64,000 nucleotides of DNA from Lytechinus pictus. Lineage: Eukaryota. The position numbers were made by a program, and so were the translations under genes. This document shows, piece after piece, positions 4,284 to 58,569 of this stretch. The DNA is taken from assembly GCF_037042905.1 (NCBI RefSeq), contig NC_087250.1, positions 19,532,001 to 19,596,000 on the forward strand. The letters run 5' to 3'. Position 1 is the first letter of the stretch. The number at the start of each line of letters is the position of its first letter. Under the pieces are notes generated by a model that was not told the origin of the DNA, ran no database searches, and saw only the letters and a list, made by a program, of their open reading frames with translations.

Positions 4284-4371
4284 ATGACAACATTGATTAC
4301 AGCTGAAAAGCTAGAATCAAAGCCAAGTGATGAAACTATTTTTTTAACCCAACCGGAAATTCAAACCAAAG
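4284..4371 (+). CDS. ZF gene coding exon 1 (MTTLITAEKLESKPSDETIFLTQPEIQTK)
   Basis: Acceptor at 4255, donor G|GTTAGT, phase 1 joins in frame to exon 5064. Confidence 0.65.
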
Positions 4372-7300
4372 GTTAGTGTGCCTTGATAATAAGCCATTTT
4401 ACAGGGGAAGTTTATTGTAAAAATAACATTAAAAATGAAATGGGTGAAGGTTTGAGGAAAATCCATTAAAGTTAAAAAAAAAGTAATTCAATTTTTTTTT
4501 GTGATGTCATATGCCAGTAGCTTTCCTTGTATTGTGAAGGAAAAGCAAAATTAATGAAATGTCATTTTCTCAAATAATTGAGAATGGTTCTTATTGACTT
4601 ACCAAGTACATCAACAGACAAATCATTTCACATCAGCTCCTGAAATAAAAACAAAATGTCATCGTGAACCATTAAAAGTTGGGAAATTCACACATTTTAT
4701 ATTGCGTAACATATGTGGCAGCTGCTGGTATATGACGTCACAAATGAAAATAAAAATAAAATTTGAATAACTTTCTTAATCTGATGGATTTTCCTCAAAC
4801 CTTCACCAAGGTCTTCCATCCTTAAAATAAGATTTTTAGATTTTATTCACTCTCGACCCCCTCTCGGGGATATGAGAGTACAACATATAAACAACATAAA
4901 ACAAACTATAGTAATGTGAAGAGATAAAGTGCTTTCCATCTTTAAAAAAAATGTGTATTGTTTTCTTAGATTGTAAAAAAGTCTTCAAAGTACTGATAAT
5001 AAAACGATTGCGTGCCATTTAATATCTTGTCACCATTCATATAATTTTTCTCCACCTCCCCAGAAGCTGAGCCCACTGTTCAACAGAATCCTAGCCCAAA
5101 TAAAGAGGAGATTTCGAAAGACAATTTCCCTCTACTGTCCTCAATAAAGGTTAAGTGTGGTGGCTGTGGAAAGGAGGCAGTGGTCCATGAGGACGACACG
5201 CCTTCGTATTTGACCGAATCCTACATCTGCGATATCTGCAAATCAAGAGCCCAGAAGAAGCTGCGCCTCCACCAACTCCTCAACGGCAAGGCGCCCTCTG
5301 AGGAACTAAAGCGGGTGGAACCGAAGCTGAAGCACCCGTGCCCGGACTGCGGTAAGGATTTCATCTCGCAGACCGATCTTAAAAGACACGCGAACATCCA
5401 TAGGGGATTGAAGCCGTTTTCTTGCGATACCTGCGGGAAGTCCTTCACGCAGACCTGTAGTCTGAAGCGCCACCTGTTGACGCACACCGACGTTAAACCA
5501 CACCATTGCGAGGTTTGTGGACTGAACTTCAAGGGCCATCTTGCCCGTCATATGAGAACCCATACGGGGGAGAAGCCATTCAAGTGCAAGATCTGCCGGA
5601 AAGGTTTTTACAAGAGTGAGCTTCTGAAGAAGCATCTGACGGAGCATATGAGAGACGGGAGTGTCACCTGTTCTAAAACACAGCTAGGTATTAGAGCTAG
5701 GGCTCATTGTTAGAGACTGTGCCTGCTTACATACATATCAGGGGCTGTTTCACAAAGAGTTAGATATGATTTAGAGTCGCACTTGAGTGCCGATGCGCAT
5801 TTATATGTGACACGCAATCTTATTGATTAATACGCATTAGTGCGCGTCCTCTTCGCATGATCTTACCAATGCCTTTTATAATGCATGCAACTAGGCATTT
5901 AAGTGCGACTCTAAGTCATACTCAACCCTATCTAGGCCGGGGGGGGGGGGGGCTTGGAGGCCCCCCCTCAACGATTCGCGCAATATCTTCGCCGTGCAAA
6001 ATTTTTTGACCACGCCGCTCAGTGACTTTTTACTTTCAAGTCTTGCGCAACTTTTGAGACCAATTTTACGTCACCCGGGTACGTGGTTCCAAAATTACGC
6101 AACATTATGTAAGTGCATGTCGGACCAAAAATTGCACAAAATGTAATTTTCAACTCAGTCTCAATTTGTTTAAATGTGAATAAGAAATTGTTAAACTTTA
6201 AATCTCAACACACACAAAATCTCACGGAGTTACCTCAAAATTTTCTCCTGCTGAGTGCAGCCTTTCTCAGCGATATGACCTGATTTGACGGAGGGTGATA
6301 CAAGCTTCCGAATGTCTATGACTCGATCATTGATCATTATGTTACCAAGGTCAAATCCGGTCACATCGCTGAGGGAGGCTCCTGTCAGAAGCTGAAAATT
6401 CTGAGATACAGTAACTCATGATTTTTGTGTGTTTTTAGATCAAAATTTTAACATTTTGTTATTTACCACCAATACAGATGAACTTATATGATTGTTTTGT
6501 TGTTCTTGTGTTTCCAGATGATATCGTTCAGAAGAACTTCAGCCATCAGCGAACCTGCTTGATCTGTGACAAGACTTACACCAGCCCCGGACACCTTGCC
6601 AGACACATGAAGCAACAACACAACAGTCAGAATGTCCTCAGGTGTGGTGTATGCACCGAGGTGTTCAGCGCCAAGGAAGCGCTGCAGGAACACCTTCAGG
6701 GCCACAGCAAGGAAGACCTGGCAGCAATCATCGCTGCCACATGTAAGATCATACACTTTGGGTGGTTTTATATTTGTGGTGTTATGTTTGTTTGGAGTAT
6801 TGCTGTAGTCAACGGGAATGGGGATAGATCCTGGGTTTTATTGAAATTATTTACTGGCAGATTTCCTTTTTATTGCAATAACTTGAGTACCATGAACCAT
6901 AGCAGATCTATTCAGGGAAGTTTCAATTTTAAATAATTAAGTGTTGTCATATTTTGCAGCCCTATTTATAACATCAATGGATTTTCTTGTTTGGTCACAT
7001 ATTGTTAAGATGAAAAGCAAGAGTTAACATACCATGGTACCCTTATGTCCAACTAAAAAAAAAAATAGTTACTTCATATAAAATGATTTGTAACTGATGG
7101 ATATTGTCTGGGGTAAAGCCTATATTAAGCTTTGGTTAGGAGTGACATGGCATTAAAGGCACATATGCTCAAGGGTTAAGTCTGAATTATATTTTATTCT
7201 GATATGTGCAATTCACTTTTTACTTTCTCTCTGTATTTTCAGTTGCCAACGCTACTGCATTGACCAACGGGATGCCTTCTGCTCCTGCTGATGAAGACGA

Positions 7301-10300
7301 GGCTGTTCCGGACGATGAAGAACCTCCGATAAAGGAGGAACCTTCCCCTGCAGCAAACACCCCAGATAATATGCTATCACAGGTAAGAGTAATTTTTCTT
7401 CTAACGGTGTTGATGATGATGATTATGAGGATGATGATGATGGTGATGATGATGAAGATGGTGGTGATGGCTATGATGATGATGATGATGATGATGAAGA
7501 TGATGATGGTGATAATGATAATGAAGATGAGGATTATAATGATGATGATGATGATGATGAAGAAGATGATGGTGATGATGAGGGTGATAGTGGTGATGAT
7601 GATGGTGATGGTAGTAATGATGATCACGATAATTGATGGCATTGAAAATGATGACTCTTCTTACTACATCTCACTTCACATATGTAGACAGAGGCTGCCA
7701 CTGTATCTTTGCTGTAGTGTTAATACCTCAGTCACATTTCGTCTACGGTGGCTGTATGGCAAGTTGAAACAGCCGTTATAACATTTTTTTATACCAGCCA
7801 CATATAGGCGGTTTGAATGAAAATGAATAAAATGGCTGTTTTCGACTTGCCGTACGGCCGCCGTTGGGGAAATGTGACTGAGGTATCAGCTATCTATTAT
7901 AAGCGATGGGTCTGATGCGGCGAAAGTGTAAAATATTTGTCTAGAGCACTCCTCGCATTTCCCCCTTCCTCTTTACTTGAGTCATTGTTTTCCTATCAAT
8001 AGATATCCATTGGTAGTTTGTACGAATAATCTGCAACAGAACAATCAGTTTAAAGAAAACAACAAGTAAACGACTGATTGAAGTCTCATTGTACAAGACA
8101 TATAACTCCTGTTTAGCATAACAGCAAAGTTATCACACCTCTGCCCAGATTACAGGCTAAACTTCACAATGAATTATTCTTATCATTTGCCATTACAGAG
8201 TTCAGTCCCAGAAGAACATGCTTGCCTTTAAGAACGTGTGTCCTTTGGGATCTGTTGCCATACATCTCACTTTACATGGAGAAAATAATCTTATCTGACT
8301 TTACAGAGTGCAGTCTCAGAAGAACATGCTTGCCTTGAAGATTTTGGTGACCTTTACGGATCTGTGGCCATGCCTGTTGCTGTACTAATTAAAACTCCAC
8401 ATGCAGGAAATAATCTTATCCTTGTCTGTCATTGCAGAGTGCAGTCCCAGAGGAACATGCTTGCCTTGATGATTGGGTGACCTGTGGGATCTGTGGCCAT
8501 GCCTGTTGCTGTACTAATTAAATCCCACATGGAGAAAATAATCTTATCCTTGTCTGTCATTGCAGAGTGCAGTCCCAGAGGAACATGCTTGCCTTGATGA
8601 TCGGGTGACCTGTGGGATCTGTGGCCATGCCTGTTGCTGTACTAATTAAAACTCCACATGCAGGAAATAATGTTATCCTTGTCTGTCATTGCAGAGTGCA
8701 GTCCCAGAGGAACATGCTTGCCTTGATGATCGGGTGACCTGTGGGATCTGTGGCCATGCCTGTTGCTGTACTAATTAAATCCCACATGGAGAAAATAATC
8801 TTATCCTTGTCTGTCATTGCAGAGTGCAGTCCCAGAGGAACATGCTTGCCTTGATGATCGGGTGACCTGTGGGATCTGTGGCCATGCCTGTTGCTGTACT
8901 AATTAAATCCCACATGGAGAAATTAATCTTATCCTTGTCTGTCATTGCAGAGTGCAGTCCCAGAGGAACATGCTTGCTTTGAAGATTTTGGTGACCTTTA
9001 CGGATCTGTGGCCATGCCTGTTGCTGTACTAATTAAATCCCACATGGAGAAATTAATCTTATCCTTGTCTGTCATTGCAGAGTGCAGTCCCAGAGGAACA
9101 TGCTTGCTTTGATGATCGGGTGACCTGTGGGATCTGTGGCCATGCCTGTTGCTGTACTAATTAAATCCCACATGGAGAAATTAATCTTATCCTTGTCTGT
9201 CATTGCAGAGTGCAGTCCCAGAGGAACATGCTTGCTTTGAAGATTTTGGTGACCTTTACGGATCTGTGGCCATGCCTGTTGCTGTACTAATTAAATCCCA
9301 CATGGAGAAATTAATCTTATCCTTGTCTGTCATTGCAGAGTGCAGTCCCAGAGGAACATGCTTGCCTTGATGATCGGGTGACCTGTGGGATCTGTGGCCA
9401 TGCCTGTTGCTGTACTAATTACATCCCACTTCACATGGTGAATCATGAAGAGACTATGATCCAATGCCGGTCATGTGGAATGGACTTTGCCCCAGCAGGC
9501 GTAAACAGAACATCTCAGGTGATGATAATTATAAACATCTTTTGGGCACTTGTATGGTGACACAACATTTGCTCCTGTGATAATTGCTATTGACCTAATT
9601 TTGTCTAAGATATAGGTTTAGGGTTGCAACAGGGTTTTATGTTAGGTTTTGGGTAAGGTTTAAGGTAGGGTTTAGTGTTTTAAGTCAGTTATTTGATTAG
9701 CATATAGAATTTATAGCCTAGTAATTGCCACTGGAGAAAACATCATGGAATCATTGGTGTAGCATAATCTATCTGGATACAATCTATTCCAAGGCAAACC
9801 ATTATGATTACACCAGCCTTCTAGTGCTTAGTGCTCTCAGGGAACTAATCCTGATAGGTACCCATTCGCCTTACCTGGTTAAAGTGCAGCACAATGTGGA
9901 TAAATTTCTGTACAGGGGCCTGTAACACAAAACTTAGCAATGATCGTAGAACATTTTTCTACGATTGCTTCCATTGACTACAATGTACAATCAATCGTGA
10001 AAATCAAGCGTACGATCAATTGCTAACCTTTGTGTTACGGGACCCTGGTCCCATTACACAAACTTTTAGAATCGATTGCTAAATTCAAACAACAACATTC
10101 ATTGGTTGATGATGTTTATGTTGTGCATTTTGATTGGCTAAAGCTATGTAGCAATTGATTCCAAACTCTTTCTGTCACAGGATACATGTCAGTTTCACTC
10201 TATCCAAGCTCTTAAATAGATCGTTAACAGGTGTTTGCGCAACATTTGAGCCTGTTCAGTGACTCCTTCCAAAATGCAGTCAATGGTTTTATGAATATCC

Positions 10301-13300
10301 ATCATTGTCTTGATGGTCAAATTTCATTCATGGCTCTACTCTGTTCATTATCCCCAGATCTGCAATGTGTGTAAACCGGAGCAGGCAGAAAGCGGTGCAG
10401 GAGCAGAACCCCAGAAGGAGGAAGCAGATGAAACAGACGTGCAAGACAATCTCCAGGACGATCTTCATGAATACGACGAGCTTGATAACGACGGCTCGGG
10501 AAAGAGATACCAATGTCTTCAGTGTGACAAGTCGTACAAGTTCCTGAAACACCTCAAAGAGCACGCCCGTGTCCACGCCGGTGGGTACCGACCGTACAAA
10601 TGCAATACCTGCGGCAAGTTCTTCTCTAAGAGATACCATCTGAATCGGCATCGACTGATCCACGCAAGAGTCGAAAGACAGCAGCAGGAGAACCAATCCG
10701 GCTCGCTCGGTGGAGTCGGTGCACCAAACCGGGGGAGAACCGGCAGGCCACCACTGAATACAGGGATGAGGGGTAGAATTGGGCGGCCACCAATGCATTC
10801 CACAGTGAAGGGGAGGATTGGGAGACCACCGTCGGATACCACAGTGAGGGGAAGAATTGGAAGGCCTCCTCTCTATTCAGGGATGAAGGGTAGAATTGGC
10901 AGACCTCCGCTGCATAGGGTGACTGAGGAGAGGGTTGATAGGCCGCCAGTGGAGACCACAGTGAAGGGGAGAATCGGCAGGCCTCCACTGCATAGTGTAA
11001 TTGAAGGGATTATCGACCGGCAGCCTTCGGAGACCCTGGAAAAGGCAACAGGTGGCAGGCTTCCAATGCATATCGTGGCGATCAAGCGGAAAGTCGGTAG
11101 CCCTCCGCTTTCGGAGAGCCTCCCAGAGCCGATCTTGGTCCAGCCAGCCGTTCCGGTCCAGGAGAACATGTATGCGATACCGAGACCACTGTCCAGGCAC
11201 ATGCCATTTGTGTGCTGCGCTTGTGGGAGAGGGTTTCCAAAGAGGGTTCCTTTGAAGCGTCATCTGTTGAATCACCTTCGGGAAGGTACCATCCCAAAGG
11301 ATCATCCGCAGCTCGGTAAGTTTGACTAAGTAATACACCACGGAATAATTTTCCTGGTATCGCATCGCAATATGCTCCACATTTTTTAAAGACTGGTACG
11401 CATTAAGTCTTTTGTATAGCATATTTTTACATAGGACTGTACATTACTTAGTTGAGGGCTTTTCTCTTATGACCAAAAATGCTATTCAAATTTGGAAGCA
11501 AAATTATTTCCTGCACCAATTTTGGCAATGGAGGGAGCCGATATTCAAACAAGAATTGTTAAAAGGAAGTCCTGGATATAAATCCTCATATCACATTCTG
11601 ATACCTATATTGAGATTTATCACTGGTGATTTTTCTCTGTTTACATCATAGAATCAGCCAATCAAAATGAATGATTTCAGGTGCTGTAAACTGTTATTGC
11701 AGATGTTATTCAATGGTATTCAGAATATAGTATTATTGATATCATTGTTTTCTTGTCTTTCTCAGATGAAATGAAGGTCAATTCCTACGTGAACGCAAAC
11801 GTAGGCGTTTCGCCGCAACTCCAGTCGTGTCCCGTATGTGGCAAGGTGTGTAAAGGGCTCCACCTCCAGCGCCACATGAAGATCCATTCAGATGACGAAA
11901 TCAAAAGGGCTAGAGACAGTAACCCAGGTGCGTCTCCGCAGCTCCAGAAGCAGCAGAGCAGTCCACAGCAGAGGGTGCCTATTGCAAATACTCATGCCGG
12001 AATTGTCTACATGAAAGGTAAAATAGAAACTACAGGGGTTCTATGATATTTGCTCCGGGGACAATTGCCCGAAATTTCACAAACAAACTGACTATATAAA
12101 TTCAACCCTGAATTTAGCATATCGCCATACCCTAAACCTAATCCGAAACCTAACAAAAAACACTACTGTATTGCATCCCTAACTCTAACCCTACATTTTA
12201 GACGAAATAAAGCCTTGAGCAATTGTCGTTGGAGCATATGTCCAGTGCCCCATACCATAGAGCTTAGCGGTAGATTGTGGGGCCTATCTTGACAATTGAA
12301 TGCATTGACTGTTGTGTGTGATCCATCGTCATAATCGGCCCATGATCGATTGCAAAGCTTTATGTTACATGGTCTTGGTTGTTCATACAATAACAGCTAA
12401 AATCAGTTTTACCCGAGAAGCAATCAATAGTAAGTTTGATCAAAATCAATTTGATGGATTCACAATACAGTGGGCCACCTATTGTTTGCAGCGGACAGGC
12501 CAATATTTGCATTGCCTTTTGGGAAAAAGTTGACATCTGTTTTGCGCTCTTGTGCATGCATGCGGTATGCTGCACTGGCCGACCCGATTTGGCCGGCTTG
12601 CATAAAAATTATGCTCTTTACCTGGGTCCAGGAGGTGGGAGAGAAATTTGCTGCATATTTATTGGCGAAATCTAGACCATTTTCGTTGAGCTCTTCCTCC
12701 GCTTTTGCCATATGGTTTACATTTATGAAGCATCACAGTCACATTACAGCACACAAGCATTGTGCGCTTGGGTTGCGGATGGAGGACGCACTGAATCAGG
12801 CAAGGAGGAGGGAGTGGACATGGGCAGTTGCTGTGAGTGTGAGGTGAATCTGGCCACCCCAGTTCACCGGGACAAACCGGAATTAAAACTTTGAATTGAT
12901 GATGATGTCATTATGAATATTGCCTAACTGGATATTAGACAAAGTGACCCGTATTCTGAAGTCAGGACCATGGTCTAAATCTGTGCTGAAATTATGGGAA
13001 ACCAAACATGTCAGAATCATGTTTACCTTGTATGCTACTCATGTTTACTTTGCTCTTCTAATACTTTTACTGGTGAAGACAACTGTCTTCTTTATCCTTC
13101 CCAGTATAGTTCAGAATGATTTGAGAGTCAAATGAGCTGATACATTTGACCTCTACTGCTTACAGATTTGTGTCACAGCTGGCTTTTCATAGTTTAAACA
13201 CAGTGGCTCGTATTCTGAACTCGGGTTTAAATTACCCTGGTTTAAAGTGCTGGTTTGAATATGGAGAGCCAATTGGGACACAAATCCCTAACAGTACACA

Positions 13301-16300
13301 TCCAATTTATTAACTCATATGACACCCAAATTGCCTGGGAATGATCATTAAAGTATTTTGATGTATTTTTCTTCATTATTTAAGCAAAAGGAAACAAATT
13401 AGTAAACATAAGAAATATACAATATAAACAATATTAGAATTTTAGGCTCCCCATAATTTTAGCACAGACTTAGACCATGGTCTAAGTTAAACCTGACTTC
13501 AGAATACAGGCCAGTGAAACCAGAGTTTAAATTAAACCTGACTTCAGAATACGGGCCAGTGTGTTTCTAGACCAAGTGGTTATACATACTGCAGTCATAC
13601 CTTTAATCAAAATTATATCTATTTCAGATGAAGCCCCCGAATCTCCTGATAGTGATGATTTCAATGAAGGAGACTTGGACCATTTTGGTAACGATGGTAA
13701 ATAGCCTTGATTCTTCTTTACTTTTTGCATTATTATAAAATAGTGATAGGAATCCTCATCAAATGATTGTTGAAAAATCTCTCGAAATGACAAATCAGTA
13801 ATGCTTATAAGTAAATTTGCTAATGACTGTTAATTGCAACTAGTTCCCTGGAGATGAGGATCAAATAATACAATCGCACATTACTATCTTATAAAACATG
13901 TTTTTCTTAACGTTTTTGCTTGGGCATACACTTGTTTTTGAAATAATACAAAAGAACTTGGCTATGCTTCGGGCATGTTGACAGTGTTCCAAATGTGCCT
14001 TGTATGTGTGATCCTTACTAATGCCCTCGACGATGTGTATTATTTTTTGTATTCTTCCAGATCCAATGCCAATGTCAATTGACAATATCCTGAATCTTGG
14101 TCAGCCGGAGCCTGAGGTTGTGAAGGAGCATGAATGTCTTGACGACCAGGTGAATTGTGGGATATGCGGACACAGCTGCTGCTGTGCAAACTACATAACG
14201 TTCCACATGGAGATTCACAATGAGGAATCTGACACATGCGGCAAGTGTGGGAAGGAATTGGGTGACCTTCCAGCCACTCGAGTTCAAGGTGGACGCATCT
14301 GCAGCATTTGCACTTCCCGCTCAAGGAAACAGATGCGCCTCCATCAGATTCTCCGCAACAAGGTCTTGCCTCCTGATTCGCCAGTCAGTGAATCGACGCC
14401 GCAGCGGTTGGAGTGTCCACAATGTCCAAAGAGCTTTGTGGATCGCCGGTCCTTCCGGGAGCATCTTCGCATCCATTCAGGCGAGAAGCGCTACCACTGC
14501 TCCTTCTGTGGAATGGCGTTCTCGCACAGCCGCAACTTCAAGCGTCACATCCAGAGGCACACTGGCGAGAAGCCCAACTGGTGCCATATCTGCAATAAGG
14601 GTATCTCAGGACACCTTGCCAGGCACATGCGGAGCCACTCTACAGAGAAGAGCTATGTCTGCAACATGTGTGGTAAGGGATTCAACCGCTCAGAACATCT
14701 CAAGAGGCACCTGAAGACACACCTTGGCACGAAAGAGGAGTACCAGTGCCATATCTGCGCAAAGAAGTTCATGCGAAAGGAGCACTTGAAGCGACATGTG
14801 AAGTCTCACATGGATGGTTCTCTTGGATCAGAGGGAGATGCTACATCTACTGAAGCAAGTCCAGGTAAGATGAAGCTACACCAACGTTCTTGTGTGACCA
14901 GGGTCGTGTAATGCAAAATACAGTGCTTAATTTTACGATTGATTTTCATGCTGATGGTACACTGTGTTTTTCTTTTGTGAAAAAGTGTCCTACGATCAAT
15001 CCTAAATCTGTGTGTTATTAGGCAATGGAGGTGGTTTCATGAAGGGACACTGTTGGCACCAAATTAAGTTTGAGATTAATTTCCATGGGACCTTGGTTAG
15101 TTGGATTGGGATATACTAAGTAGTTGATAATATATGGGTCATTTAATATAGGCTGTCAAGGTAGATTTCCTGTCAGAAACACATGGAGTTCTAAATTCTA
15201 AGAGGCAAGATATCAGTGACTTTGTATCTTTCGTTCGTTGACAAATGTCACAATATTTTGATTTTTTTATTTGTTTGTCAGAAGTTTGTCATATCCTGCA
15301 GCCCGATTACATGTATCTCAGTTTTTGGATGCACACGCATCAGAATATAATATACAATATAGGAAGCGCTAGTTGCTTTATGGATTATATACAGTATCAC
15401 CATTCCAATCCCCATTTCATACATTTAATCACAAGCAAGTTATCATCAAAAAGTTCTTTGTCAGTCTTTATCTACACCAAGGAAAACAATTAAAAAATGA
15501 CCAACAAAGGGCCATTGAAAATCATAGACGACAGCTTTGAACAAACTGGAGTCGTTTTTGTTTGTTTGACTGTATTTGGCATTACATAGCTTGTGATATT
15601 GATTGCTGTTTATATTTACCTTGTTCTTGATGTACAGTAAAACCTGTGCGTCCACCGGTGAATGATCAGCCCTACAAGGAACATCCCTGCACCTACGACG
15701 TTGCTGTGTGCGGTCTTTGTGGTGACGTCTGTTGTTGTGCCAACTACATTCCCTATCACATGGAAGTGCATGGAGAAAAGGCCGAAGACTACATCGATGG
15801 GCGTCTAGTCAAGAAAGAAGTCGCACCCATGCAATGTGGCAATGGAGGAAAGACAGTCAGGGAGCACTCCTGCACCTTCGATCCTGTCTCCTGTGGCCAC
15901 TGCGGAGAGGTTTGCTGCTGTGCAAACTACATACCCATACACATGGATCTTCATGGAGAGAAACCAACCGACTTTGCCAAAGACCAGATCCTCAAGAATG
16001 TCAGAGAAGAAGTCCAGATAAAGGTTGATGAACGGATACCAGAGGAAGCCCCTGAATCGCCTAAGGAACAATTGGAAGATCACCCGTGCTTGGGAGAAAA
16101 GGTTGTCTGTGGTATTAGTGGTGAGACATTCTGCTGTGCCAACTACATTGCGCTATACATGGTGAAGCACACCAAGCAGGCTGCAGAGACAAGAGGAGAG
16201 GATCATCCTGATGATATCCTTGAGAAAGCTCTTCATGCTTCTGAAATTATTGGCGATGTCAAACCACACCCTTGTACTCACGAAATAGTTAGTTGTGGGG

Positions 16301-19300
16301 TCTGTGGAGAGCCATGCTGTTGCCCAAATTACATTCCTTTCCATATGGAGCTGCACCGTGAAATCTTGGACCAGGAGACAGTCGTCCAAGAGGAGGTTGT
16401 GGGCGTTGCCGATGAAGTAATACCCATGAAAGAAGAAGCTCATGAAGCTGATACTACAGGTATGATTAGATACAGGTTACTTTGCCAAAGTGAAATCTTT
16501 TGGACCACAAACATTTGTTTGACTGGGAGAAATTTGACTTACAAGAAATATATATACTGGTGAGTAAAAAAAAAAATGACACCTCACAAATCCCCAATTT
16601 AAGGGAAAAGTATGTCATGCACACATAATTATTATATATGGCCTGAAAGAGTATGTTTTCCCAAATAATATGATACCATATTTATGTGGTATGTGTTAAT
16701 GCTTGGATGATCAGGAGGTATTCTTTGCAGTGATGTAAATTTTGATTTTTGCCAAAGTAAGGCATGACTGCAAAGAATGAATCTATATGTCTATGATGCC
16801 ATGATCCTACAACGGTTGCAATAACATGCATTTCAGAACACTTTTGCAATAATTTACATTATAATTGTTTGATAAACACTTTTTAGTATCAATTCTGAAA
16901 TCAATTTCATTAAAAAAGGGATTTGCAAACATATTTACTAACTCATGTAGGATTATGACGTCAATGGCATCTGGATTCATTCATTGCAGTCATGCCTTAC
17001 TTTGGCGCAAGTCAAAATTCACATCACTGCAAAGAATACCTAATGATTATCCAAGCGTTAACACATACCAAATGAATATGGTATCAAATTAATTGGGAGA
17101 AGATACTACAGCCATATATACCGTATTTTCCGGTATATAAACCGCGGCCGTGTATAAACCGCACCCCCAATTTTTGACTCTTGGAAAAAAAAAATTAAAA
17201 AAATTGAGGAAACCAGAAATAGTGAAATCTGTGTAATATTCTATATATTTGAAGGAATATCTTCATGCATTCTCCGTGATACTGAAGCAATAAAATATAC
17301 GAAAAGATATTATTTGTTCGATGCAAAGTGTTTTCACTTCGACAATTTTGACGCAATTATCTCGCTCATGCAATACACAGCGATAATGCCTGTACCGTAC
17401 CGGTACGTGGTGCTGAGTCTATGGGCAGCTGCCGGCTGCCCCGAGCTCTGCCTCTGGTACGTCCAAAGTGATTCGTCCTGATGTATGAATTTTGCATAAA
17501 TACTCATAAAACAGACTTATTACCTGTTGACGACGAATTGGGATTGTGTTTACTTAAGCAACTCAACACCATCACATGACCAAATAATTTGAGAACGGAC
17601 TGTTGGCCGAGCGAGACGAGCAGTCACGTCGGCTTTTAACTTTTTTTTTCTGAGCATACATGGAGGGAGCGCATGCGCGTTGCTCGTGAGTCGCCGCAGC
17701 CAGGGGGGGGGGGATGGGAAGGGACGATCGGGCATTGCATCTTGCATTGATATTAAGTTGTTTTTTTAAATGAGAAAAATGATGTGATGTGGATGTGGAT
17801 GAAATACAATTTTACAAAGTAACAAATACAAAGTTCTCCATTGCTGCAAAAGCAATCAATACCGGTAGATGGCGCTTCAACACGTACAGTCTTCAAGTTT
17901 AGTTAGCTGCACATTAGAAAGGCCTCGAGCAAGATTTGTTTCTTTCTGGGATTTTTCTTATTTTTGGTTTGGAAAAGCGATAGTAGGCAGCTTTAAAATT
18001 TAGTGCCCTACTGTTCAGTATTAGAGGTATGACATTAGCTGTCAATTACACTAGCAGATCGGTCAAACAGAAGAGGGTAAAATCTTAACTACGTCTACGG
18101 TACTGCGCGACGCTCCGCCTTCAGTTTCCCTGTCGCTAGGCTGCGGCGCGCCCAGCGCCGGCCAGCCATGCCAGCAGGCACTGGCAGGCGCTACCGAGGA
18201 GCGCTTACCGAACATGGATTGGCCGTCTCGCGAACACCACGACAAAAATCATTAAATTATGAAAAGAGAAAGACAGAGATGATGTAAAGTGAGTTTTATT
18301 TCATTCTTTTTACAAGTCCACGTTTCAAACATGTCACACATATGCTAAATTTTCATCAAGTCAATCAAGTTTCTGAGGTCGGATTTCTCTGTGTTCGTGT
18401 ATAAACCGCACCCCCCATTTTCGAGGTTTTCCCCGACAGAAAAAGGTGCGGTTAATACACCGGAAAATACGGTAATGATGCGTTCATGACAGATCTTTTT
18501 CCTTAAAATGGGGATTTGTGAGGTGTCATTTTTTTTTTACTCCCAAGGTATGAATTACATGTTTCGCTTAATCTGGTCTGAAAATACTGCTTGGACTTGG
18601 GAAATAAACACATGTTTACCCATATTAGGTCAAACCTTGTTCTATCGCTTGTAGAGACAATTGAAAACATACATTGTTTCAATTTTCTTGCCAAGTCATC
18701 CACGCAACATCGCGGAACTGCTTTTCATCACAAAAGATGGCTGCGTAACCTTGAAACGGGTGCCTGGTCTTAAAATTTGCATTGCCTTTGCCCTTTGGCT
18801 ATTTTTCAACAGAGAGAAGATTGACTTATTGAGATTTCTACTTTTTTTCATAATATCTGTAGGTGAGGTCCAAGATGTCCCAGCTACTGTTGCTGACGAA
18901 GCTGTTGAAGCCCCAGAGGGTGTTGAAGCACCAAGAGCAGTGACAGCATCAGAGACCGCCGAGGTTGTGAATAATGGTAGTGCACGTGCAGTGGTAGAAG
19001 AACATGCGGAAGAGTTTGACTGGGCCAGTGTCGCCAATTTCCTCCAGGGAATCCCTGAGCCAGGTATGTGGTGAGGGCGGTAGGGGGAATCCTATGAGAA
19101 ATGTTAGACTAGAAGCTTATTTTGCCTCCGCAAAATGAATCTGCCGGACTTTAACAAAACTCTAATATATGTTGTGTGATTTATATATAAAGACACTGGC
19201 AATGCTGTGGCTTGACTTACTTCTTTGAAAATGCTGACTTCCTTACCAATATCAGATATTAAATTTCTGAAATATCCTAGTTCACGTTGGCAGCTCTGCT

Positions 19301-22300
19301 CGCAACTCATTTCTGTTCCTTAGTCAGTGTAAGGCAGAAGTCATCCTGCTTTCTTCTACGGGATGTTTATTAACGTGTGAAACGGTAAATTGCCAATTCG
19401 TCTATTGCCAAATCATCCACTCACCATTTGGTGTACTTTCATTTAGTCTAATGCCATTCCGTCCATCAACATTTCATCTAACAACCATTTGGTCCAATCA
19501 TCAATTCATCTAATCACCATTTCTTCTCACACCCAGTCGGTCTAATATCCATTTCATTTTCATTTATTTTGCACAATTTACATTTACCGGTAGTCCAATT
19601 AGACCAAATGGTATATGGATTAAATGTCTATTGGACCAACTGGTTATTAGACAAAATGGTGAGTGGACAAATTGGCAATTAGACCGTGTGGATAGTTGAC
19701 AAACTGATAGTAGACCAAATGATAATAGACAAGTTGGCATTTGGATGAATTGGCATTAGACGAATTGGAAATTAACCTGTGAAATTAGTGAATAGAGTTT
19801 AATTCCAAAATTGTATGACTCTTGATGCCAGGCTGCTTCATTATGTGATGCAACTTGACATAAATATTTTAAGGGATACTCATACCTGCCAACCATTCCG
19901 ATTTTGGCGGAATTATACCGATTTTTTAGCCTCCATTCCGAATTCCGAATTTTTAAACCGAAATTCCGATTTTTGGGTCAATCAATATAGTGTTGAAATT
20001 ATTGAAACGGCTGTATGATGCGACTAACGCATAAGCGGCTGTAACATACGACTAACGCATAAACAACTGGAGCGCACGGCTAAGTGCTAAGTGCACAGTT
20101 CCATTGCAATTGCATGTGAAAATTACGAGCAGCGCGCGGCCGATATTAGCGTTGACTTCCGGAACAAAATGGCGGCTGACATCGGCTCGCGAAAGTGCCA
20201 GTTTTCAGTGAGGACACGTTTTCAAAATCCACGAACATCGGAAAAACCGTGAAAAATTCACTTTTTTAGACCCCTTGTTTCCTAACTACGATGTATAGAA
20301 TTAACGATGGTGATATTTTTGACGCGAAATATGGTGATTTAGTAAGAAAATTTCACTTTTTATTCGAGGTTTTGCCCTTTTCGCCGGATGATTTTGTATT
20401 GTGGAATGAGTTAGTGAATGAGTCGTGTTTTGGTGTCTAGAGTGTGTTGGTAATATCATTGATGAGTCTGCTGACCGGCTGCTTAAATTACCCGGCCGCT
20501 CGGCCGGCCGCGCCGTGCACATGGGGAGGCTCTGCTGCAGTTACTCAAGTTAGATCTATCCCTACGCAATGTTAAAATTGATCTGTACTTTATTTTTTCG
20601 AATAATTGTCAAATTTGTGAGAAAGAAAGGAAATTATCAACTTTCGAGTCAAGTTGAGCCATCGGAGCTGAACGCCAAATCTACTTGCTTCGCTTGCCTA
20701 AACTCCCGGCGCCCGAGTTGCTGCGCCTCAGCCTCCCAGTCTCACCGGCGCACCGCAAGTGCAGTGGTGGTTGCGGGTCGGGCGTATGCCGCCGTAAGCT
20801 TCGGCTCCGTTTTTGTCATGGCTGAAAATCTGCTTTCTTATGCCAACAAGCACTTATCTAATAAAGTTTATGATATAACCTTGTCCTCAGTCACTACTCC
20901 TGTGTGGTGAAATATAAACATGAATAAGATGACAATGTTTGGCTTATTTTGATGCATATGATAGACTTGATATAAATGATAAATAAATGTTAGATTTTTT
21001 TGCACTCAGTTTTTAATACAGTAGGCCAACTTGAATCTGAATTAATGATACAAAATATCCCTTGGCCCAAAACTCAATTGTATTCTTGAAATTATTTTTT
21101 TTCTGATTAAAAAGAGAATCTTTCCAGAAACTTTCCAACAATAGAGGGCATCACAATTTATTAAAAAATTAAATTATTCCTAAGTCTATATAGATTTCAA
21201 TGAAAACAAATCACACCTGAATGAAACTGGGTGTATTTTTTGTCACAAACGTGATATCTTCAAGACCTTTGTTTTAATGTTTAATTGACAAATGATATTA
21301 TATTACATATAAGTAGACTAACGTTACATGTAGGTCATCCTGTAGGTCATCCTGTGGTATGGTAAATAGGGTAAATTTGCTTTAAAAGGGGTAGAGAAAT
21401 GCTAATTTTACATGCAGAAAATGCAGAGTCCCTACCATGGGAGGGGGAAACCATCTCGCGTGCGACCCGTTCGGGGCCCTCGTGGCTTTGATACTGATTT
21501 TTTATTATCAAAGGTTGGCAGGTATGGATACTATGTTTTGAAAAGGACACTTGCGTTTGAGGTGGCGGGCCATGGGGGAAAGGGGGCGAAGACATGGCGA
21601 AGCAAGTGATGGAGGCAAGTAGGAATAATTGGTTGAGGGACGAGGTTGCACTGAATGGTCACACGTTTTCTGCGGGCTTTATTTCTTCTTATAAGACATA
21701 GGGTTAGGTTTGCAATAGGGTTTTATGTTAGGTTTAGGATAGGGTATGGTGGTCTATCCAGGGTTGAAGTTGGCCATTCCATTAATGTGTGGAATTTGCA
21801 GCGGAGCAATTGTCGCCGGAGCATATGTCATGGAACTGCACTGAATAGAGTAAAATAGAGGGAGGGGATGAGGGTGATTACTGTGAGATCGCTCTGATTT
21901 TCCTGTTTTTGCAGCAGCGAATTACAAAGTTCAACACATTTTTGTCTCACCTGCATAGCAGAGTGAGACTATAGGCGCCGCTTTTCCGACGGCGACGGCG
22001 GCGTCAACACCAAATCTTAACCTGAGGTTAAGTTTTTGAAATGACAGCATAACTTAGAAAGTATATGGACCTAGTTCATGAAACTTGGCCATAAGGTTAA
22101 TCAAGTATTACTGAACATCCTGCCTGAGTTTCATGTCACATGACCAAGGTCAAAGGTCATTTAGGGTCAATGAACTTAGACCATGTTGGGGGAATCAACA
22201 TCAAAATCTTAACCTAAGGTTAAGTTTTTGAAATGTCATCATAAATTAGAAAATATATGGACCTAGTTCATGAAACTTATACATAAGGTTAATCAAGTAT

Positions 22301-25300
22301 CACTGAACATCCTGCATGAGTTTCACGACACATGACCAAGGTCAAAGGTCATTTAGGGTCAATGAACTTTGGCCGAATTGGGGGTATCTGTTGAATTACC
22401 ATCATAACTTTGAAAGTTTATGGATCTGATTCATGAAACTTGGACATAATAGTAATCAAGTATTACTGAACATCCTGTGCAAGTTTCAGGTCACATAATC
22501 AAGGTCAAAGGTCATTTAGGGTCAATGAACTTTGGCCAAATTGGGGTATTTGTTGAATTACAGCCATAAATTTGAAAGTGTGTTGGTCTAGTTCATAAAA
22601 CTTGGACATAAGAGTAATCAAGTATCACTGAACATCCTGTGCGAGTTTCAGGTCACATGATCAAGGTCAAAGGTCATGTAAGGTCAAAGAACTTTGGCCA
22701 CGTTGGGGGTATTTGTTGAATTGCCATCATATCTCTATAAGTGTATTGGTCTAATTCATAAAACGTGGAAATACGAGTAACCAAGTATCACTGAACATCT
22801 TGTGCGAGTTATAGTAGTTTTCAAAATCAGCACTGCTGCTATATTGAATCGCGCGATGCAGGTGAGACGGCCAGAGGCATTCCACTTGTTTTTTTTTGTC
22901 TTTCCTTCTGTTTTTGCTTTCGTGAATTGATTTTGATAATTCTGTTTCTCTTTTTTTTCCATTTTCCATTTTCTGAATGGAAGCCTTCCCACTGATGTTA
23001 TTTATTTCTTATGTGTTTAATTTTGTTTCTTCATACTGTTCACATATTTTCTGAACAGTTAAAAGTGACATTCTTGAGTTTATTTCTTCTGTAGATCCAT
23101 TACCTGTTCCTCCGCCCATGGCCACCGTAACCAACGTTGAACCTTTGAACGGATCACCAGTGAAGGTGGAACCTTCCCAGGTTCAAGTCCAAGAGAGTCA
23201 GGTGGATGATCATATATGTCTTCAAGCTCAGGTGACCTGTGAAACCTGCGGCCATGTCCTGTGCTGCATCAACAACCTCATCCCTCACCTCGACACCCAC
23301 AAGGTCATGACCGTACAGTGTGAGGTGTGCCACCAGGAAGTAGAGATGACCAGGACTGCCACAGTAATGAAAGATGGCGTGAAGATCTACAAGTGCGGTG
23401 CCTGCGTGATGGGCCTGCCAACGATGCCATCAAGGTCCTCCAGACCTGCACAGGTAAGAGATTCCGAAGGAGGTCCCACACCGAGTAAGAATATCCCTTG
23501 TCCGCACTGCCCCAGGGTGTTGAAGTGCCGCAAGGATTACACCAGGCATATCAAGATCCATGCGGAAGTCAAGCCGTACAAGTGTGACATCTGCGGCAAG
23601 GAGTTCACAGCTATGGCCAACTTGAGGCGTCACCTGGATGCGCATGCTGGGGTGAAGGCGCATGAATGCACGATCTGCGGGCAGTTCTTCAGCGGACACA
23701 TGGCCCGTCATATGAGGACACACACCGGGGAGAAGAAATACAACTGCGAGATCTGTCCCAAGGGTTTCAATCGAATGGAGCATCTGAAGAGGCACCTGTG
23801 GCAACATCTCAAGGATGGCAATGCCCCAAGCGATCATAAACAGCTACGTGAGTAAGATTACCCAGGCTTCCATCTACCCCTTCCCACAATCCCTTGCCCT
23901 AGTAACTGTATCGAGCTTGAACTGTCTCAGAGTCTGTAGGTTTTGCATTCATGTAGCTTTAGTCCGCGTGTGCTTCACGGTGGTGTCTTTTGGTTTGGCA
24001 ACATAGTGACTTCTTGAGACCTGACGAAAAAGTTTGTGCATCTGTGTTGCTTTGGCTGGCATATGCTTCCAGGTGAAAACGTTATTGCAACAGTCACACC
24101 AACGAATCCGACTCCAAACTGACCGATGGTATTCCAATCAAAATAACGTAATATCTTTGATCGGTCTGTGTTGGTGTGACTGCGGTGTGACGCTCTATGT
24201 TGTTCAAGTTATTAGTTGAAGATTTTGCAGCATGGTGTTCTTCAAGGTAACATTGTGGGCCCTCTTTTACAAAGGTACAATTTAAGTCATGGCTTTGACC
24301 AGTGGTCCAACCAATGTTTGGTTGGCAGGTATGGTACAAAACTTGAATTGAAAATACATGCTTGCTCCATCATTAGCTTTTCTGTTTTTACAAAAGATTA
24401 TTTACAGATGTCTAGGAGTCATGATTGCAAATAATTTTTCTTGAAATCTGTAGAAACAGTTGTGACGACTGGCTTTCCCTACCCAAACCACAAACTTAAA
24501 AATCTTGTTTGAATAATTATACCCTTGTCAAGATGGGCCTCCATTGGCCTGTAGCACCAAGAAGTACGATGGGTTGTAAATGTGAAAGAACAAATCTGGT
24601 TGGTTCCTGGTCAATGGTTTGAACAAGATACACATGCAACAATGATTTTGATTGGTTAGTGTCATGTTGTGATTTGATGACATTTCTTTTGTGTTACAGG
24701 GTACCGTTCTGCCAGCCTGGTTGATGTTTGATACTAATACTCTAGATTTTATTGCACTAACTATTGTATTATTTTGCATGCTACTTTCTGTATTAAGCTT
24801 TTACTATTTGTCGTAACAGCCTCTTCATTGCTGATGTTTTTTACTTGACATAAAATGTGATATACCTGAACATACCATCAAACCCGTGAGACATTTTTAA
24901 AGAAGAAACTGGACAAATATTTGGACAAAAACACACTAAAATAAAATAGACAATGTGTTATAGTCGTCAATTTCTTTGAAGAAATTATGATTTAACATGA
25001 TTGTCCATAATTATCAATTATTATTGGAATGTATGAAGAGATTTTCATTTTCTATTACTAAAGCGGTTAATTAGTTTAATTTCTATCATGTATTTGAATG
25101 ATCATTCATTCATATTCTACGTTTTTCCTTTTTTTTTAATATGAGGTGACAAATCAGTGCCTTTGTTGATTTGTTTTTCAATCAGATAGTGCATTGGTCA
25201 ATGGATACTGATTGGTGTTAAAAAAACCTCTAAAAAATTCATGAATGGTCCCATTTCTGGAAATGTCTTTGAAATTTTTGCTATTTCTTGGCTGTCCGGA

Positions 25301-25778
25301 TCAGCAGGTATGACACACCTATGAAAAATAAGAAAGCTACTTCAGGGAAGTATTTCATTAAAGGACATGTTGGACGTAGAATCCCACGACAGTTACCGTA
25401 GTAACGTTGCATCTCAGCCAATCAAATTCAAAGCAAGTTGTCAGATGAAACATGTTGATGAAATGCTACTCTTGCCCAAGTTCAGTAATTGATTGATTGC
25501 CTATTTTCTTTTTCTTCTCAGTCGAACTAGGCGTAACAAGGGACAATGCCCAGCCAAGTGAAACCTCCCCGTCAAAGAGCAACTGGTGCGACATCTGTCA
25601 CAAGATCGTCCCCGGTCGTCTGGCCAGGCATAAGATGACTCACAGTGACGTGAAACCGTACCAGTGCACCCAGTGCGACAAGGCTTTCTACCGATCGGAA
25701 CATCTGAAGCGCCATCTGGAGGTTCACGCCAGGAAGGCGCAATTTACTGGGCTGCTGCCGACAGAGGCAACGGCATGA
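4284..25778 (+). CDS. Large multi-zinc-finger protein (about 1790 aa), 13 coding exons: 4284-4371, 5064-5687, 6518-6742, 7243-7382, 9339-9518, 10358-11315, 11766-12017, 13628-13696, 14061-14864, 15638-16459, 18863-19063, 23095-23847, 25522-25778
   Basis: All introns are GT-AG with matching phases. Summed exon length is 5373 nt (1790 codons plus TGA). About 21 C2H2 fingers with TGEKP-type linkers. The first coding exon and the 13696 donor (alternative 13687) are less certain. Confidence 0.85.
5064..5687 (+). CDS. ZF gene exon: C4 module plus 4 C2H2 fingers
   Basis: CCCCAG| acceptor, G|GTATTA donor; fingers CPDC, CDTC, CEVC, CKIC. Confidence 0.92.
6518..6742 (+). CDS. ZF gene exon: 2 C2H2 fingers
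   Basis: TTTCCAG| acceptor, T|GTAAGA donor; CLIC..H, CGVC..H. Confidence 0.88.
7243..7382 (+). CDS. ZF gene exon: acidic/proline linker
   Basis: TTTTCAG| acceptor, CAG|GTAAGA donor; PADEDEAVPDDEEPPIKEEP. Confidence 0.85.
7410..7640. repeat. Imperfect (ATG)n microsatellite
   Basis: Direct reading; intronic. Confidence 0.95.
8165..9440 (+). repeat. Tandem array of 10 copies (period about 128-131 bp, first 108 bp) of intron 3' end plus exon 5' part
   Basis: Acceptor-like CAG|AGT(G)CAGTC(C)CAGA with exon starts at 8199, 8307, 8438, 8566, 8695, 8823, 8951, 9081, 9209 and 9339. Confidence 0.95.
9339..9518 (+). CDS. ZF gene exon: atypical CCC finger plus first half of a C4 module
   Basis: The last and only open copy of the tandem array; CAG|GTGATG donor, phase 0. 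Confidence 0.85.
10358..11315 (+). CDS. ZF gene exon: 3 C2H2 fingers and GRIGRPP repeats
   Basis: CCCCAG| acceptor, G|GTAAGT donor; lies in ORF 10310-11329. Confidence 0.92.
11766..12017 (+). CDS. ZF gene exon: 1 C2H2-like finger
   Basis: CTCAG| acceptor, G|GTAAAA donor; CPVCGKVCKGLHLQRHMKIH. Confidence 0.85.
13628..13696 (+). CDS. ZF gene short acidic exon
   Basis: TTTCAG| acceptor; DEAPESPDSDDFNEGDLDHFGND; phase 1-1. Confidence 0.7.
14061..14864 (+). CDS. ZF gene exon: CCC finger, C4 module, 5 C2H2 fingers
   Basis: TTCCAG| acceptor, G|GTAAGA donor. Confidence 0.93.
15638..16459 (+). CDS. ZF gene exon: four atypical CCC fingers
   Basis: TACAG| acceptor, G|GTATGA donor; lies in ORF 15646-16563. 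Confidence 0.9.
16557..18548. mobile_element. Outer long-TIR MITE interrupted by a second element
   Basis: GAGTAAAAAAAAAAATGACACCTCACAAATCCCC is mirrored by GGGGATTTGTGAGGTGTCATTTTTTTTTTACTC. Confidence 0.75.
17121..18472. mobile_element. Tc1/mariner (pogo/Tc2-type) non-autonomous element, TA TSD
   Basis: TA|CCGTATTTTCCGGT...ACCGGAAAATACGG|TA; repeated TATAAACCGCA motifs. Confidence 0.85.
18863..19063 (+). CDS. ZF gene exon: acidic Ala/Val/Glu-rich linker ending EEFDWASVANFL
   Basis: TGTAG| acceptor, G|GTATGT donor, phase 1-1. Confidence 0.82.
19384..19777. mobile_element. MITE with GG termini and 8-bp TSD (Merlin-like); relatives at about 3590-4130 (interrupted by a MITE at about 3862-4015) and about 57513-57900
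   Basis: GGTAAATTGCCAATTCGTC / GACGAATTGGAAATTAACC; flanks TGTGAAAC/TGTGAAAT. Confidence 0.75.
19881..21526. mobile_element. Non-autonomous DNA transposon with 6-bp TSD (hAT-related)
   Basis: CATACCTGCCAACC / GGTTGGCAGGTATG TIR; GATACT on both sides. Confidence 0.85.
21939..22890 (+). mobile_element. Helentron-associated (HINE/DINE-1/Tsp-like) element with internal 163-191 bp tandem repeats; degenerate reverse copy at about 35775-36170
   Basis: Subterminal IR GTCTCACCTGC / GCAGGTGAGAC, T-rich insertion site, 3' ACTTGTT end, about 4.5 internal repeats containing GGTCAAAGGTCA. Confidence 0.8.
23095..23847 (+). CDS. ZF gene exon: CCC-like finger, C4 module, 4 C2H2 fingers
   Basis: TGTAG| acceptor, C|GTGAGT donor. 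Confidence 0.92.
25522..25778 (+). CDS. ZF gene terminal exon: 2 C2H2 fingers and stop
   Basis: TTCTCAG| acceptor, TGA at 25776-25778. Confidence 0.88.
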
Positions 25779-58300: not shown

Positions 58301-58569
58301 ACTCGGCTATGCCTCGTTGAATGGATCATTTCATCTTTCACCTCATGAAGTATTCTGTCCATTGCACTCATAAACATTCATTATTTGTATATTATTTTCC
58401 TCTCTTCTCCTCTTGCAGGAACATAGGCTTCTGGACAGACAAGACGCAAAGGAAAGGTGTCTATGTGGATGGGCAACTTGGAAAATACAAGAGGGGTGTG
58501 CAGGTCTTCTCAAAGAGGGACATAGCAAAGATAAAAAGTCAGACAGGAAAAAGAAAAGGGAAGAGGTGA
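52289..58569 (+). CDS. C1orf131: C1orf131 / DUF4602-family homolog (SSU processome-associated factor), about 294 aa; exons 52289-52343, 53376-53740, 54193-54363, 54900-54986, 55393-55448, 58419-58569
   Basis: Motifs PEVVVF, DLDQARHEVWKFGISG, AVQLGAKPPKRAFVNYKEL and GQLGKYKRGVQVFSKRDI match the C1orf131 family as I recall it (ARLEVHRFGITG, LGAKPPK..YVNYK, GQVGKFKNG). 885 nt in frame. Confidence 0.88.
53376..53740 (+). CDS. C1orf131: C1orf131-like exon 2 (Lys-rich)
   Basis: TTTTAG| acceptor, GAG|GTGGGT donor. Confidence 0.85.
54193..54363 (+). CDS. C1orf131: C1orf131-like exon 3
   Basis: CACAG| acceptor, non-canonical AAG|GCAAGT donor. Confidence 0.88.
54900..54986 (+). CDS. C1orf131: C1orf131-like exon 4
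   Basis: TTGCAG| acceptor; PPKRAFVNYKELM; ATT|GTAAGT donor. Confidence 0.88.
55393..55448 (+). CDS. C1orf131: C1orf131-like exon 5
   Basis: GGCAG| acceptor, CA|GTAAGA donor, phase 2. Confidence 0.8.
57978..58391. mobile_element. Dispersed element with long terminal hairpin; second copy at about 27637-27999
   Basis: Shared AGATAGATCCTTG...CATTCATTATTTGTATA sequence. Confidence 0.7.
58419..58569 (+). CDS. C1orf131: C1orf131-like terminal exon
   Basis: TTGCAG| acceptor; GQLGKYKRGVQVFSKRDIAKIK; TGA. Confidence 0.88.

Follow-up and report, generated by a model that had tools for sequence, protein, structure and literature searches.

Why does a single intron–exon boundary of a sea-urchin gene stand in ten tandem copies, and which of the ten acceptors does the message use? 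The boundary lies in a window of 64,000 nucleotides of Lytechinus pictus (NC_087250.1, 19,532,001 to 19,596,000 of the forward strand; all coordinates here are those of the window), in the gene LOC129263179, whose coding span (4284..25775, + strand) comprises 13 exons and encodes a 1790-residue multi-C2H2 zinc-finger protein. The array is most probably a minisatellite built from intron ends and exon starts, of the kind called 'mirage', which is likely neutral and removed with the intron, the last acceptor likely being selected via exon definition.

Anatomy of the acceptor array

The exon upstream of the array (7243..7382, + strand) ends in the phase-0 donor CAG|GTAAGA and matches the RefSeq model XP_063956533.1 of L. 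pictus (P0003). Farther down the same intron, TRF on the window reports a repeat of period 128 with 9.0 copies, 93% matches and a score of 1953, far above chance, with a 258-bp dimer as the second period. Ten CAG|AG acceptors are counted in the assembled window sequence, with their first exon bases at 8199, 8307, 8438, 8566, 8695, 8823, 8951, 9081, 9209 and 9339. Each unit joins about 45 nt of intron end to about 84 nt of exon start; the units are 108–131 bp long, within the 10–160 bp reported for mirages, and the CAG is kept in all ten. The repeat period and the ten sites agree with a sequence-only reading of this DNA, which had described ten tandem acceptor/exon-start units of about 128 bp. 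Twenty-five of the 26 exon boundaries of the host gene are single in the window; the multiplied one is the 9339 acceptor, for which a window search finds nine further matches at no more than six mismatches in 30 nt.

All units lie on the + strand, and their divergence is graded: it is greatest at the 5′ end, and the copies at the 3′ end are nearly identical. Copy 1 (8154..8261, acceptor before 8199), likely the original acceptor position, is the most diverged, with 22 of its 84 head letters unlike those of copy 10. Copy 2 (8262..8392, acceptor before 8307) carries a +2 variant and a diverged tail, and differs at 8 of 84. Copies 3–6 (8393..8905, acceptors before 8438, 8566, 8695 and 8823) and copy 8 differ at only 1–2 head letters. 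Copies 7–9 (8906..9293, acceptors before 8951, 9081 and 9209) have the tail of copy 10; the +2 variant is present in copies 7 and 9, with 7 differing head letters each. The 44-nt intron tails of acceptors 7–10 are identical (0/44 differ), with the same branch-like motifs and 15 pyrimidines in 20. In the functional 3′ splice signal (9294..9338), YTNAY-like motifs are placed at −49, −25 and −20, followed by the pyrimidine tract (15/20) and the CAG. A Cys/His-rich 'CCC' module has six matches in the gene, the first of them in the functional exon, copy 10 (9339..9518, 180 nt, phase 0 at both ends). An alternation of two unit types, which had been claimed for the array, holds for the heads of copies 7–10, to which the A/B alternation is confined; before copies 3–6, it is the tails that alternate, between two other types. 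A degenerate (TGA)n microsatellite of 200 bp (7411–7610) occupies the same intron, 30 nt past the donor at 7382.

The host protein and its RefSeq models

The 13-exon model that uses copy 10 (1790 residues) equals P0003 exactly once a 58-residue insert is deleted from the latter. With a 60-residue query from the exon, two proteins were matched among three candidates; the matched clusters comprise L. variegatus XP_041467247.1 (P0001), L. pictus XP_063956533.1 (P0003) and S. purpuratus models. The insert of P0003 corresponds to copy 3, a copy of the +2 type and the polypyrimidine tract, all translated, and P0001 has a 35-residue doubling in which two heads are linked in frame by the polypyrimidine tract. 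A single head, homologous to the exon at 9339–9518, is found in all six S. purpuratus proteins checked. Both Lytechinus models likely hold array-derived inserts (58 and 35 residues) that lack read support.

Six C2H2 fingers are encoded upstream of the array. Pfam assigns no family to the exon 9339–9518 or to the four-module exon, and otherwise finds only C2H2-type families in P0003. A HMMER search with the four-module exon returned 0 hits among 1.84 billion representatives, a set evidently without even the known orthologs, and the look-alikes of the Cys/His-rich module in the ESM Atlas were weak and inconsistent, none of them convincing. This module, H-x-C...C-xx-C...CC-x-N-Y-I-xx-H-xxx-H, recurs at 9351–9440, 14128–14217 and within 15678–16355 (six matches), with a looser copy near 23210–23300, and is conserved in the S. 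purpuratus orthologs; it is possibly an undescribed sea-urchin zinc-binding module.

Other features of the protein were observed in passing. At 10731–11035, a degenerate 39-bp coding repeat gives six (R/K)GR(I/T)GRPP motifs, which we take to be AT-hook-like; the matching position in S. purpuratus is occupied by a shorter GRPP repeat unit. Four S. purpuratus proteins (P0002, P0005, P0006 and P0008) show a 7-residue internal duplication in the exon homologous to 9339–9518, near the end of the Lytechinus unit, which suggests a slippage-prone spot. A further L. pictus model, XP_054757073.1 (P0004), follows the host gene up to donor 7382 and ends in an exon at 58420–58545, 51 kb downstream; the switch probably marks a place where, on another haplotype, the annotation or the assembly broke at the array.

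Reading frames of the upstream copies

Read from the phase-0 donor at 7382, copy 1 reaches a TAA after 10 codons and copies 3–6 and 8 reach one after 27 codons; copies 2, 7 and 9, with the +2 variant, run into a TGA in the following unit after 57, 53 and 53 codons, respectively (at 8478 for copy 2). Copy 10 alone stays open through to donor 9518. The earlier views that the nine upstream copies are dead ends, by a TAA in copies 1, 3–6 and 8 and by the +2 variant in copies 2, 7 and 9, and that only the most distal acceptor gives full-length protein, are both borne out by this frame reading. The nine premature stops are located 148–1287 nt upstream of the 9518 junction, as is expected of stops in poison exons. 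One TAA is common to copies 2–9 and hence probably goes back to a single inherited event. Each dead frame contains 3–16 stops before 9518, so that closure of the frame needs no single TAA. The notion that the TAA was selected as a poison was rejected as unsupported, given one shared change and frames that close without it. A recursive splice (ratchet) site is an AG|GT junction that regenerates a donor; this candidate was also rejected, as all ten junctions read CAG|AGT and none AG|GT.

Do these stops serve a purpose? It had been proposed that a regulated or copy-number-dependent share of transcripts enters the upstream copies, meets a premature stop and is degraded by NMD, which would tune the dosage of the zinc-finger protein. 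All nine upstream acceptors do lead to stops that lie 148 nt or more ahead of the next junction, and the unit is multi-copy in both species. According to the available text of PMC2812944, boundary repeats can give alternative splicing, so that a function is possible in principle. However, stops arise in any frame-shifted 128-nt unit and are thus no sign of design, and mirages elsewhere are reported, in the available parts of PMC3087553 and PMC3902484, without disturbance of splicing. Our literature search found no case of a function for a splice-boundary repeat of the mirage kind. If such a rheostat were true, it would give a function to a repeat class reported as silent, and a mirage would be a heritable dosage dial.

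Acceptor use in RNA

Acceptor use was judged from read depth on one unit and not from reads across the 7382 junction. RNA and DNA data were placed on 9292–10701, which holds a single unit, and reads of any copy pile up there. The RNA runs X22 and X23, two of the three listed raw RNA runs, are stranded, rRNA-depleted total RNA, to which two contig sets were added; about 6/100 of each run was read, which gives a low depth, and NMD was active in the samples. All covering reads of X22 and X23 differ from the window at 9464, 9467, 9468 and 9479; the runs therefore come from other animals, in which the array is an assumption.

In X22 and X23, respectively, the head bins have depths of 26.1 and 27.5 and of 28.4 and 26, the unique exon tail 26.1 and 19.7, and the downstream exon means of 22.3 and 29.8, and the unique intron 10091–10325 has a depth of zero. 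The intron-tail bin has a depth of 2.89 and 1.6, of which 1.67 and 1.81 come from the CAG shared with the end of the upstream exon. What is left as array-tail excess is about 1.2x (about 1–2 reads) in X22 and none in X23, against about 25x for the exon. RNA depth drops from about 26x to about 2x at the functional 3′ splice signal (9294..9338). The junction from 9518 to the next exon (10358..11315, + strand) is crossed by 17 and 18 raw reads and by one contig of organism B, a relative. The RNA-like contig of organism B (3388 nt, depth 22) contains a single head without any tail, covering 9336–9515 and continuing at 10355; its tail-bin value of 1.41 equals 22 × 3/47. In the intron that follows the functional exon, high-copy repeats at 9527–9667 and 9809–10090 collect reads by the thousand that originate elsewhere, both in the total RNA and in the DNA runs. 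They crowd the tables of letter differences, joints and loose ends, whose displayed part leaves out 308, 43 and 1058 entries, and no argument here uses a missing entry.

In the model used, a message that enters copy k and runs on carries 10 − k tails. If all ten acceptors were used equally, the tail-bin ratio would be 1.55–3.74, for an assumed 20- to 3-fold NMD; the observed ratio is 0.027. Equal use is therefore excluded even at 20-fold NMD, provided that the sampled animals carry the array. A two-read excess sets a 95% bound on the steady-state share of about 2% for a uniform leak and of about 12% if copy 9 alone leaks; at 10-fold decay, the corresponding bounds on flux are about 19% and about 57%. 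A dosage rheostat can point to the array-tail excess of X22, and a leak limited to copy 9 could conceal a large flux behind NMD. Nevertheless, the excess comes to some 1–2 reads in X22, is absent from X23 and may stem from unspliced RNA, and a uniform leak would stay at or below about 2% in steady-state share and about 19% in flux at 10-fold decay. The proposal of a poison-acceptor rheostat is unsupported in steady-state RNA, and we regard it as unlikely; that the array is a selected, copy-number-tunable sink, retained in two Lytechinus species, renewed from the functional exon and sending a stage-specific share of transcripts (mostly from copies 7–9) to NMD, is quite unlikely.

Could the copies yield in-frame extra exons, either as 39-nt micro-exons with a CGG|GTGACC donor or as the doubled and tripled heads of P0001 and P0003? 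The 39-nt units of copies 4, 5, 6 and 8 are open and in frame, both RefSeq models contain additional heads, and the pooled head/tail depth ratio is 1.18–1.19 (1.38 in X23 alone). Point depth goes from 32/30 at 9376 to 23/21 at 9431, inside the pooled range of 46–60 along the single-copy exon, and the head/tail excess allows minor extra heads. Threading along P0003, however, calls for three times the head depth and for a tail-bin ratio of 0.38, in contrast to the observed 1.19 and 0.098 (with the CAG overlap still included), and two of the P0003 joins, read directly, lack GT or AG at the matching places of the window. The organism B contig is one-headed. As for micro-exons, there is no depth step at 9377, the bin after the donor being as deep as the one before, the proposed donor matches 5 of 11 consensus letters compared with 8 for the true donor, and copy 3 has TGG, not CGG, at that place. 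Minor use of this donor is conceivable, and a low-count joint may lie among the 43 outside the displayed part of the table. On the whole, extra exons of either sort are very unlikely.

The other product suggested earlier was a truncated isoform: a stable protein of six C2H2 fingers that would arise from an upstream acceptor, for example by a message that ends inside the array. Six fingers do precede the array, and the shared part of P0004 ends exactly at donor 7382; but P0004 runs on into the exon at 58420 and not into the array, and a stable message would show clear depth over the array tails, where it is near zero. This isoform is thus unsupported in steady-state RNA, and its existence is extremely improbable. 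Taken together, these RNA data agree with nearly exclusive use of the last and real copy, copy 10.

The array in a related species

In DNA of organism B, the summed contig depth over 9292–9432 is 421/884/624, compared with 41–52 in unique bins, that is, 9–20 times single-copy depth; summed in this manner, it speaks for many copies and is not a copy number. The elevation is confined to the unit, and the unique bins include the next polypyrimidine tract. The single-copy contig begins at 9388. One contig, with a depth of 49 out of 554, has a 1-nt deletion at 9376. Organism B also lacks 3 nt at 10487, in keeping with a one-residue gap in P0001.

An assembly artefact, covering the whole array or the greater part of its copies, would be compatible with a copy number of ten taken from the L. 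pictus assembly alone. The copies, however, differ in a graded and structured way, by up to 22 of 84 letters, and a separate species presents both a doubled head in P0001 and multi-copy depth bounded by the unit; an artefact is hardly credible. The organism B contig shows eight differences from the window in total; the seven that are listed for the exon 9339–9518 all lie in its unique tail (9431–9518), leaving at most one in the repeated head (9339–9430). This skew may reflect splicing constraint, homogenisation or chance.

Origin of the array and choice of the last acceptor

The starting point would have been a tandem duplication that took in about 45 nt from the end of the intron and about 95 nt from the beginning of the exon, and slippage, unequal exchange or conversion may renew copies from the functional boundary. 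This boundary apparently serves as a terminal repeat from which the array is renewed, while the 5′ edge decays. Unequal crossover had been proposed before, and the mosaic make-up of the copies agrees with turnover through unequal exchange. Intron divergence between the window and organism B (11%, or 15/137, on one contig) predicts 4.8 changes per 44-letter tail, and tails 7–9 show none (P ~0.008, with a single contig as yardstick and three tails that are not independent). By this comparison, turnover of the array is apparently recent and follows the species split. Of the earlier suggestions, that of a neutral, recent minisatellite is the best supported, but the array is not simply recent, as copy 1 differs at 22 of 84 letters and the relative is multi-copy. 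Persistence in two species could reflect selection, which would argue against neutrality. Microhomology at the breakpoint, between the intron before copy 1 and the exon part at the unit end (score 24), was considered and dropped as not significant, 12 control intron ends scoring 14–25.

What, then, singles out copy 10? Acceptors 7–10 are identical over 44 intron letters, so the intron sequence cannot make the choice. Copy 10 is unique in its exon tail and in a donor at 180 nt that has 8 of 11 consensus letters, whereas internal GT sites reach 5, as scored by a crude letter count against the donor consensus. Entry at copy 9 would give an exon of 310 nt and entry at copy 1 one of 1320 nt. We infer that the last acceptor is chosen by exon definition: copy 10 would win by being the only one 180 nt from a usable donor, perhaps aided by enhancers in the unique exon tail, and NMD would remove any leak into the copies upstream, as noise and not as regulation. 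Both introns flanking the functional exon exceed 800 nt, and the available part of PMC9225289 states that the sites nearest across the exon are favoured where introns are long. For human 3′ sites, the same part describes an upstream preference that is reduced under exon definition and not reversed; exon definition alone may therefore not explain near-exclusive use of copy 10. The apparent use of the distal acceptor runs against first-come or nearest-across-intron rules, and the locus is a clean natural substrate for the study of 3′ splice-site choice: four acceptors share the same 44 intron letters, and the one that appears to win is the most distal.

Comparison with known systems

As far as the available text of PMC3087553 goes, mirages of amphioxus are tandem duplications of an intron 3′ end and an exon 5′ part in units of 10–160 bp, which keep their splice signals, splice normally, are unstable in length and evolve in concert with the boundary units excluded; the available part of PMC3902484 gives the same description for Adh, troponin C and PGBD5. 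Four of the five mirage features are found in the sea-urchin array, the fifth being length instability, and on this ground we place it among the mirages. Tandem units span an intron–exon boundary of the host gene; concerted evolution excludes the boundary unit (copies 3–6 and 8 differ at 1–2 of 84 letters and copy 1 at 22, and tails 7–10 are identical); and regular splicing is undisturbed, as judged from steady-state depth and the organism B contig, with the array assumed in X22 and X23. The amphioxus cases described in these excerpts (Adh3, the globins BflGb6 and BflGb9, troponin C and PGBD5) share the units of intron end and exon start; BflGb6 has 3–6 units of 150–160 bp with 81–100% identity. 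The present array differs from them in its echinoderm host, its signal in two species and its ten units. It brings a sea-urchin locus, on evidence from two species, into the mirage class, and our literature searches for sea-urchin mirages and splice-site minisatellites, with most subscription papers outside their coverage, returned no report of the locus.

Human genes offer two partial parallels. The CBS variant c.844_845ins68 duplicates the last 52 intron and first 16 exon bases, and the duplicated 3′ site is used with the upstream piece excised, as here (PMC7490669, in its available part; PMC2630376, likewise available in part, is a further source). Unlike the array, it has one extra copy and is a human polymorphism. 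The 37-bp VNTR in IVS7 of F7 is, according to the accessible portion of PMC1557585, an exon–intron boundary minisatellite whose identical pseudo-sites are silent though functional, and the site adjoining the true exon wins, as in the array; there, however, the donor is repeated and not the acceptor. The authors of that study invoke 5′-to-3′ scanning, which alone would choose the wrong acceptor in the sea-urchin array. Finally, in the Rogers model of intron gain, as presented in the available text of PMC3265369, an internal tandem duplication is followed by splicing out of the redundant part, as here; in the array, by contrast, an existing intron is lengthened with the same donor, and no new intron is formed.
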